Origin: Candidatus Helarchaeota archaeon
GTDB lineage: Archaea; Asgardarchaeota; Lokiarchaeia; Helarchaeales; RDOG01
DNA length: 64,000 nucleotides
Assembly (NCBI GenBank): GCA_019058315.1
Contig: JAHPZH010000006.1
Location: forward strand, 96,001 to 160,000
Direction of reading: 5' to 3'
Of this stretch, positions 29,380 to 30,194 are shown piece by piece (the first letter of the stretch is position 1; every line of letters begins with the position of its first letter). The notes under the pieces are model-generated. The model was not told the origin of the DNA. It did not search any database and saw only the letters and a list, made by a program, of their open reading frames with translations. Made by a program: the position numbers and the translations under genes.

Positions 29380-29603
29380 TGGTGGGGTTGAAGGGATTTT
29401 CACCGAAATTTCGATTATTTCGGATTTGAACCCTTGATAAGTCCTCTGGATAAAACTCGTTCATCCAAACGAGTTACTCCTAGTGGTACGCTCCAAAATT
29501 ACATCATCTGGAATCAGTATTTTTATTCTATTTTTCTGGAGCCCGTTGTCATACCGTGTTTTCTTAAGCTCACAATATGTGAACACATCTAGACCACAAC
29601 CCC
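29380..29603 (-). tRNA. tRNA-Trp(CCA); four introns at 15/16 (29559-29588), 37/38 (29475-29535), 43/44 (29441-29468) and 59/60 (29397-29424); CCA encoded
   Basis: Removing 30+61+28+28 nt gives 77-nt GGGGTTG TG GTCT AGCACGGTA TGAC A ACGGG CTCCAGA CTCGT TTATC AAGGG TTCAAAT CCCTT CAACCCC ACCA; BHB helices GTCT/AGAA, CTCC/GGAG, ACTC/GAGG, TTCA/TGAA. Confidence 0.88.
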
Positions 29604-29636
29604 TTTTTATTCAGCTTTTTTAGGAGGTTTTTATGT

Positions 29637-29793
29637 GAGAAAATAATATTTTACCGTGTTCGGAACGAGAACGGATGGTTCCATTGGCCTATGGCCGACC
29701 ACGAATGATCAGCTAACTGGATTTCTCGTTGGCTCTCGCACAACAGAAGTTCCAATAACGCACCAAATGTTTAATTCGGCATATTATTTCCTC
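29637..29793 (-). other. BHB processing stem flanking the permuted 5S rRNA
   Basis: 13-bp outer stem GAGGAAATAATAT (29793-29781) / ATATTATTTTCTC (29649-29637), central helix GCCG/CGGT, 3-nt bulges AA|T and AA|A. Confidence 0.85.
29651..29774 (-). rRNA. rrf: Circularly permuted 5S rRNA gene (canonical 3' half 29774-29706, TTCG linker 29705-29702, canonical 5' half 29701-29651)
   Basis: 5' half TGGTCGGCCATAGGCCAATGG...CCGTTCTCGTTCCGAACACGGTAA has loop C (CCGAAC); 3' half TTAAACATTTGG...GCGAGAGC...AGCTGATCA supplies the helix II partner, helices IV/V with a GAGA loop and the helix I partner. Confidence 0.9.
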
Positions 29794-30194
29794 TTTTTCT
29801 AAGGCGCCATAAATGTTTTCCGTTTTATTAATCATTTTCCATAATTTAAATTTAAACTTCAATTTTTAAAAATTCTAAAGAATTAATTTAAAATTTTTCT
29901 CCATTACTTTTAACTTATTCTAATTTGAAATTTTATGTAAGCTATTAAACCAATAATTTATTATTTTCATCATATAACTTAATGCTTGACGATTTTAAAT
30001 ATTTGGAATAAAATCCAACTGTGTATTATTAACTTAAAATTATTAGTTTCTTAAAATAAAATAGAAAAATATTCATAAATTGATTTTGTATTCAAAAAAT
30101 ATATCTAAAATTTTTCTAAATTTGTTAAAATTAATAAAATTAGGTGAATTTTACATCCCTATATAATTCAATCAAATAATAATTGTGATTAAAG

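Follow-up and report, generated by a model that had tools for sequence, protein, structure and literature searches.

The gene for 5S rRNA, a molecule that is universal and whose gene is regarded as trivially recognisable, is in this Helarchaeota archaeon very probably circularly permuted in the DNA and made functional by the tRNA-splicing machinery, which would cut its transcript and join the excised piece end to end. In the window (the whole stretch of 64,000 nucleotides that was analysed), the locus runs along the minus strand from 29793 to 29637 and reads, in that order, a 13-nt leader, GCCG, AAU, 69 nt, UUCG, 51 nt ending in CGGU, AAA and a 13-nt trailer. The 3' part of the 5S rRNA lies upstream of its 5' part, and the native ends are linked. 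The elements are these:

29781 to 29793, minus strand: leader strand of the outer helix (h) of a BHB motif, 13 bp with 29637-29649, one of them G-U.
29777 to 29780, minus strand: GCCG, leader strand of the central BHB helix (H), 4 bp with the CGGU at 29653-29656, one of them G-U.
29774 to 29776, minus strand: AAU, the 3-nt 5' bulge, with the predicted cut between 29775 and 29774.
29706 to 29774, minus strand: 3' part of the 5S rRNA, 69 nt, encoded first; matched by the nhmmer profile and by the permuted-core model R1.
29702 to 29705, minus strand: UUCG tetraloop that links the conventional 3' and 5' ends and caps helix I.
29651 to 29701, minus strand: 5' part of the 5S rRNA, 51 nt, encoded second; matched by RF00001 (3'-truncated) and by nhmmer.
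29653 to 29656, minus strand: CGGU, which in the precursor pairs with GCCG as the 3' strand of the central BHB helix.
29650 to 29652, minus strand: AAA, the 3-nt 3' bulge, with the predicted cut between 29651 and 29650.
29637 to 29649, minus strand: trailer strand of the outer helix, 13 nt, complementary to the leader.

In conventional numbering, the 3' part corresponds to about positions 53-120 (the loop B side, helices II', V and IV, the loop E region and the 3' strand of helix I), and the 5' part to positions 1 to about 52 (the 5' strand of helix I, loop A, helix II, helix III and loop C). Helix I has 8 bp (29713-29706 with 29701-29694) and is closed by the UUCG. The initial annotation of this DNA had described swapped halves, a TTCG link, an 8-bp helix I, a 13-bp stem, a GCCG/CGGT helix and 3-nt bulges; we find that anatomy base for base, and each coordinate that it gave for these elements is correct when the minus strand is read again.

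A 4-bp helix, two 3-nt bulges on opposite strands and an outer helix make the flanks of this gene a BHB motif. In archaeal tRNA introns at position 37/38, each strand has a helix, the 4-bp helix and a bulge, and the cut falls after the second bulge nucleotide; the layout of each strand here is that canonical geometry. A strict hBHBh' motif it is not. The inner helix h' amounts to a single U-A pair after the 5' bulge, so the 5' cut site is of the relaxed (bulge-helix-loop-like) type, and cleavage there would depend on a tolerant endonuclease. The genome holds two genes of the splicing-endonuclease family PF01974 (103 and 78 bits, in frames of 184 and 204 aa) and one gene for RtcB (582 bits), and two endonuclease paralogues are typical of heteromeric enzymes that tolerate relaxed motifs. 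From the presence of these genes, it seems likely that the 5S precursor would be cleaved by the EndA family and ligated by RtcB.

We propose the following pathway. The precursor would be transcribed off the minus strand, and its leader and trailer would form the 13-bp stem while the leader GCCG paired with the CGGU at the end of the 5' part, exposing two 3-nt bulges and so completing the BHB. The splicing endonuclease would cut both bulges, releasing 124 nt of RNA that begin with a 5'-OH and end in a 2',3'-cyclic phosphate, and RtcB would seal its ends to each other. The joint would restore the normal sequence between helix III and loop B. The CGGU would then change partners and enter helix III, giving the three-armed 5S fold with its conventional ends capped by the UUCG tetraloop; in the Rfam alignment of the product, 29653-29656 is indeed part of the 3' strand of helix III, so that the same four nucleotides have alternative pairings.

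How much of this could be chance? The BHB shape by itself is no evidence at all, because a blind scan of the window (outer stem of at least 10 bp, 4-bp helix, 3-nt bulges and 100-170 nt enclosed) returned 31 such shapes, compared with 16-29 in shuffled windows; in the AT-rich DNA here the shape is not rare. What does stand above chance is that the 17-bp motif sits at the sole position at which joining the cut sites restores the 5S register, as had been claimed for it, together with the co-varying flanks and the RNA contigs that carry the exact joint. Folding adds little. Whether we folded the precursor, the rearranged RNA as a linear molecule or the circle, the minimum-energy structure showed neither the BHB nor the Y-shape of 5S rRNA, and we read these folds as uninformative rather than contrary because the rearranged sequence, when constrained to the consensus structure, fits it at -30.7 kcal/mol.

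That the two parts together make a 5S rRNA can be seen by putting them back in order. We built a comparison HMM from 22 canonical 5S genes of the same phylum (Asgard) and searched with it by nhmmer: the rearranged sequence (5' part, then 3' part) scored 54.5 bits (E 6e-17) end to end over profile positions 4-113, and the best of 200 shuffles scored 2.5 bits. In native order, the match splits into swapped pieces of 26.2 and 14.5 bits, the 5' part aligning at profile positions 4-50 and the 3' part at 61-113. Of the 26 RNAalifold consensus pairs of the canonical genes, 25 form when the rearranged sequence is threaded on that structure; canonical members average 24.2. The product sequence is thus colinear with a full-length 5S rRNA and has its helices I-V, which bears out the initial annotation; at the base of helix III, this genome and its family lack two pairs (model positions 25-26 with 52-53).

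Standard models see far less. At gathering thresholds, two tRNAs are the only Rfam matches in the window. At relaxed thresholds, RF00001 aligns the 5' part in native order and then runs off into the trailer with 21.6 bits, below its gathering score of 38 bits, as expected for a permuted gene; standard rRNA finders do, as had been foreseen, miss the gene or would call it partial. Trimmed to its predicted end, the 5' part matches RF00001 as a 3'-truncated hit (model positions 6-52, 22.6 bits), and the 3' part alone has no hit at E<=10. The genome (5.79 Mb in 12 contigs, 94% complete) was also searched for a colinear 5S gene elsewhere, a check that the initial annotation had called for, and RF00001 at E<=10 found none. 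RF00001 and R1 each find a single place in the 5.79 Mb, and for both it is this locus. It is the organism's 5S gene, the only candidate found in a genome that is 94% complete.

Relatives have kept the arrangement. In a DNA search of 40 of them, the sister genus and another family of the same order gave matches that run across the UUCG link. Among the 41 genomes of the class, RF00001 scores above its cut-off in two, both of family f5; the remaining genomes give RF00001 matches of 18-31 bits, often two of them adjacent, which on inspection are permuted genes, and the permuted 5S is present in at least 33 of the 41. It is because the gene is permuted that RF00001 reports no above-cut-off 5S in these genomes. 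From 27 permuted cores, we made an alignment (A1) and from it the model R1; RNAalifold on A1 recovers helices IV/V and the closed helix I, with compensatory changes in 13 of 18 pairs.

A wider sample of 151 genomes of the phylum was scanned with both models. Canonical 5S genes (RF00001 above cut-off) occur in 49 of them, in families f10, f15, f19, f13, f28, f29 and f5, and the permuted core (R1) occurs in 58, with one full-length locus each: 24 of 25 genomes in f4, 4 of 4 in f6, and others in f9, f11, f12, f16, f17, f18, f20, f21, f22, f24, f25 and f30. Not one of the 151 has both the canonical and the permuted 5S. Families f8 and f23 are missed by R1, and in the five of their genomes that were fetched, the gene is permuted by eye. 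In all, more than 50 independently assembled genomes show the same permuted gene order, each with unique flanks.

The flanks also co-vary. In an alignment (A2) of seven genomes from families f1-f3, the structure consisting of the BHB, helix I and helix II is 89.3% paired, compared with 66.4% when shuffled and 30-43% when slid. All 14 aligned pairs of the outer helix have compensatory changes; the closure of helix I is 100% paired, with compensatory changes in four of seven pairs; and in relatives, pairing of the central helix reaches 96%, its variants being GCCG/CGGU, GUCG/CGGC and UCCG/CGGA. Across 22 loci from 14 families, with sites picked by a finder that maximises stem length, a leader pairs with its own trailer at 9.2 of 10 positions and with those of other families at 4.6 of 10. 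The same 22 loci have ten distinct central-helix sequence pairs, all of them paired 4 out of 4. The blind finder chose the expected site where the adjacent stem was long and was misled in f4 (stem GCG/CGC), where the BHB sites were read by eye. Conservation of the permutation with co-varying flank stems had been proposed as a check on the locus, and the locus passes it.

There is also evidence from RNA. Six metatranscriptome runs share words with the locus, and four were examined as assembled contigs. Three of the four (X1 and X3 from wetland, in two studies, and X5 from mangrove, in a third) contain contigs of 154 nt, and 154 is 124 plus 30, the number of letters needed to write out a cycle of 124 successive 31-mers (k=31). 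Accordingly, the first 30 letters of each ring record are its last 30 letters, and the X5 record is rotated relative to those of X1 and X3. These contigs cover 29651-29774 and nothing else, have no loose ends and pass directly from 29774 to 29651, a step that goes back 124 and coincides with the predicted cut sites. Read in the sense of the RNA, the joint is CACGGUAA/UUAAACAU, exactly as predicted, and its position carries a two-letter ambiguity because AA is present at both cut sites. Mean word depth of the cyclic contigs is 4.5-8.5.

Thus, an RNA in which 29774 is joined to 29651 is present in three metatranscriptome studies, and the 124-nt junction-spanning RNA that was predicted from the DNA has been found. 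Both the ligation joint and the UUCG link are present in RNA, as seen in assembled contigs rather than as closure of single molecules. The leader (29778-29798) and the trailer (29631-29650) have no cover in the contigs of X1, X3 and X5; precursor flanks were too rare to assemble there. The joined leader-trailer product is in no contig of the runs examined, which counts neither for nor against the pathway. One or two letters of the ring contigs depart from the window, among them a C-to-U variant at 29694 that turns a G-C pair of helix I into G-U and so keeps the pair, as expected in a related strain under structural constraint. The fourth run, X2, has cover at 29400-29545 only and none on the 5S.

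The surroundings of the locus deserve a word of their own. Just downstream of the 5S, on the same strand, are a tRNA at 29374-29269 (minus strand; anticodon region CUUGGGA, probably Pro-UGG), which has a 34-nt insertion, scores 45.6 bits with Rfam and is not found by ARAGORN, and a tRNA-Thr (29250-29175); with these tRNAs so placed, an RNA gene cluster may begin with the 5S. Between them and the 5S, at 29601-29383 of the minus strand, is a candidate multi-intron tRNA that both ARAGORN and Rfam miss. Its GGGGTTG at 29601 and a CAACCCC-A-CCA ending near 29383 would pair as an acceptor stem, about 220 nt apart, and about 26 nt split its T-arm, GGTTCAAATCC; within the candidate, 29400-29545 is covered by RNA contigs from X1 and X2.

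Is the sealed ring, then, the mature molecule, or is it only a stage on the way to a conventional one? The evidence leans towards the ring rather than a ring re-opened at the UUCG, and we hold it probable that the closed ring is the mature 5S rRNA built into the ribosome. Cyclic contigs require all of the 31-mers over the loop and the joint, here at a depth of 4.5-8.5, and 48 of 54 permuted loci connect the native ends by a loop of 4 nt (UUCG in 28 of the 54, the others mostly YNCG), beneath which helix I is sometimes lengthened and fully paired. The precedent of the Thermoproteus SRP RNA, whose circle is the functional form (PMC4731332), also favours a stable ring. It is possible, and in our judgement unlikely, that the ring is only an intermediate that is opened in or beside the UUCG, leaving the ribosome with a linear 5S rRNA of about 120 nt. 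Permuted tRNAs reportedly go that way (Soma et al. 2007, cited in PMC4267664), circular pre-rRNAs are mostly re-linearised (PMC12918454), and the contigs give no proportions of ring and linear forms. However, a loop of four nucleotides, overwhelmingly of the stable YNCG kind in the 54 loci, has the look of a retained cap and not of a spacer with a nuclease site; the depth of the cyclic contigs in three runs means that 31-mers spanning the loop were not rare compared with those elsewhere in the molecule; and the nearest analogue, that same SRP RNA, remains circular and functional (PMC4731332).

There are two further readings. One might suppose that the locus is a decayed or rearranged relic and that a working colinear 5S gene lies in unassembled DNA, given a genome in 12 contigs that is 94% complete and the fact that metagenome bins often come without rRNA genes. 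We consider this very improbable, because dozens of relatives, the single-contig genomes G041, G075, G061 and G051 among them, have no 5S-like locus besides the permuted one, because the canonical and permuted forms never co-occur among the 151 genomes, and because the flank stems co-vary and the predicted product is expressed as RNA contigs. One might also suspect an artefact, either a misassembly of the window or cyclic contigs that derive from head-to-tail 124-bp DNA repeats in related strains, since the runs consist of contigs and DNA can be present in RNA libraries. To this we give next to no credence. Misassembly, which had been named at the outset as a way in which the permutation could be spurious, is ruled out because related genomes keep the permutation with co-varying flank stems, and the more than 50 independent assemblies agree on the gene order with unique flanks; the flanks of the locus are uncovered in the runs in which the ring has 4.5-8.5x cover, and a tandem 124-bp array is unsupported in any genome examined. 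The reading that we prefer is a permuted gene with a ring-shaped product.

The place at which the gene is broken has not stayed put. Reading the flanks, we find at least four breakpoints: three in adjacent registers beside helix III and one in loop C. With a slash for the joint, they are:

GGA/AGUUAAG: families f6, f9, f11, f12, f16, f18, f22 and f24.
AGAA/GUUAAAC: most of f4, and f20.
GGUAA/UUAA: the order of this genome (f1-f3).
ACCCGGUC/CCAUCC, in loop C: genus g7 and two species of g10, within f4.

One breakpoint difference separates species inside a single GTDB genus. Where the break is in loop C, homology between the leader and that of its neighbours is plain to see, and a 16-nt stretch, CCAUCCGAACCCRGAA, has its place at the gene's 5' end rather than its 3' end. 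The central BHB helix always takes one of its two strands from 5S helix III, and the opposite, leader strand either nearly repeats that strand or is its palindromic partner; CCGG is self-complementary, and CACG and CGUG are two transitions apart. On the strength of that resemblance, we infer that the arrangement may have originated by tandem duplication, such that two copies of the helix III strand with its AAG bulge came to pair with each other. Why a breakpoint should shift by one nucleotide, or by 17, has no obvious explanation. Taken together, we find it somewhat probable that the ring is the mature 5S rRNA in this archaeon and in most Asgard lineages, that its breakpoint is for that reason free to move and that a universal rRNA gene has been permuted anew again and again.

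Several relatives show departures of their own. In L146 (G054, f17), about 60 nt downstream of the permuted 5S, its first ~25 nt (…CCAGAGAGTTAAGCCCGGCATC) recur, which suggests a tandem second copy, possibly of an intermediate type that could allow the breakpoint to move. Three loci of genus g8 (L105, L108 and L110, from G008, G009 and G023) and L060 (G025) have an extra block of about 29-30 nt in loop C, between CCGAA and the 3' strand of helix III, and their rings are predicted at 150 nt; the 5S gene may have been expanded here, or the block may be one more BHB-type intron within it. Hairpin-like insertions of about 30 nt are found in helix IV/V of L035, L046 and L052 (G035, G033 and G011) and of L054 (G019), and an insertion of about 30 nt lengthens the closed helix I of L055 (G029). 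The insertions in these five loci may be lineage-specific 5S expansion segments. In L134 and L139 (G061 and G051, f16), the best BHB encloses 152-153 nt, and about 30 nt separate a first CGUG-AAA motif from a second, similar one, CCGUGAGA-GUUAAGCC. This may reflect a duplication of the 5' BHB half or an additional hairpin in the leader.

The canonical genes, too, have something to say. Family f5 is the sole family of the class with canonical 5S genes, and its loci L032 and L033 (G038 and G017) score 58-65 bits, are present in two copies in G017 and have a TATA-like box upstream and no BHB. The idea that the ring is ancestral, by way of canonical Asgard 5S genes flanked by a BHB, was rejected: those genes have TATA-like boxes about 25-35 nt upstream and T-rich ends, and they have no BHB. 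In f10, a family otherwise canonical, L154 (G153) is a colinear 5S with an insertion of about 32 nt after GGCAGTTAAA and an RF00001 score of 32 bits.

What would all of this mean? With a permuted gene whose function requires cutting and joining, the topology of a core ribosomal RNA would be changed in most of the sampled families of the archaeal phylum closest to eukaryotes, and the missing 5S annotations in genomes without an above-cut-off RF00001 match are accounted for. If the reading is true, the known essential substrates of the tRNA-splicing machinery would include ribosomal RNA. A 5S rRNA with a sealed helix I and no free ends would be a natural experiment on ribosome assembly and RNA stability, and the moving breakpoints are an evolutionary puzzle in themselves.

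Other RNAs have come by similar arrangements. Circularly permuted tRNA genes exist in Thermofilum pendens. They are also reported from Cyanidioschyzon merolae (Soma et al. 2007, cited in PMC4267664). Like those genes, the 5S gene has its 3' half upstream of its 5' half, a BHB at the new termini and a circular RNA stage. End-processing enzymes open the tRNA ring, which is an intermediate, and remove its intervening sequence; the conserved 4-nt tetraloop that links the native ends of the 5S has no processing signal in evidence.

The SRP RNA of Thermoproteus tenax has a permuted gene on which canonical gene finders fail, and its circular RNA is functional (Plagens et al. 2015, eLife, PMC4731332). 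It resembles the present case in being an essential, universal and structured RNA with a permuted gene. Here, however, the RNA is 5S, a component of the ribosome. The SRP RNA arrangement concerns a few species and one breakpoint, and ours concerns most of a phylum and at least four; the SRP RNA circle is the functional form, and for the 5S a ring within its ribonucleoprotein is a probable state.

Ribosomal RNA itself is no stranger to circles. Archaea make circular pre-16S and pre-23S rRNAs, and Pyrococcus furiosus has a circular or permuted mature 23S rRNA (PMC7758197; PMC12918454). Cleavage at a BHB and ligation of an rRNA are common to those cases and to ours, and some archaea keep the circularised 23S in the ribosome. 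Unlike the 5S gene, the genes of those rRNAs are colinear, and the BHB is in the processing stem that extends the terminal helix; the 5S gene is itself permuted and does not have that layout, and its joint is internal, between helix III and loop B. A paper of January 2026 states that archaeal 16S and 23S “but not 5S rRNAs” are circularised (PMC12918454), and our searches of the full-text literature found no archaeal 5S rRNA that is permuted or circular.

The initial annotation knew of no described permuted 5S gene, which holds for Archaea in the literature searched and fails for brown-algal mitochondria, whose permuted 5S is the sole published one in that literature: the final RNA is linear and permuted, with an open three-way junction (Valach et al. 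2014, PMC4267664). There, as here, helix I is closed as a hairpin, the ends lie elsewhere and standard models miss the gene. The algae have no BHB and no ligation; in the archaeal gene, the break is sealed again. Cutting at a BHB and ligation are already known, as a class of mechanism, to rescue permuted genes of tRNA and SRP RNA; that a ribosomal RNA is made in this way, that the arrangement spans a phylum and that it has multiple breakpoints is new.
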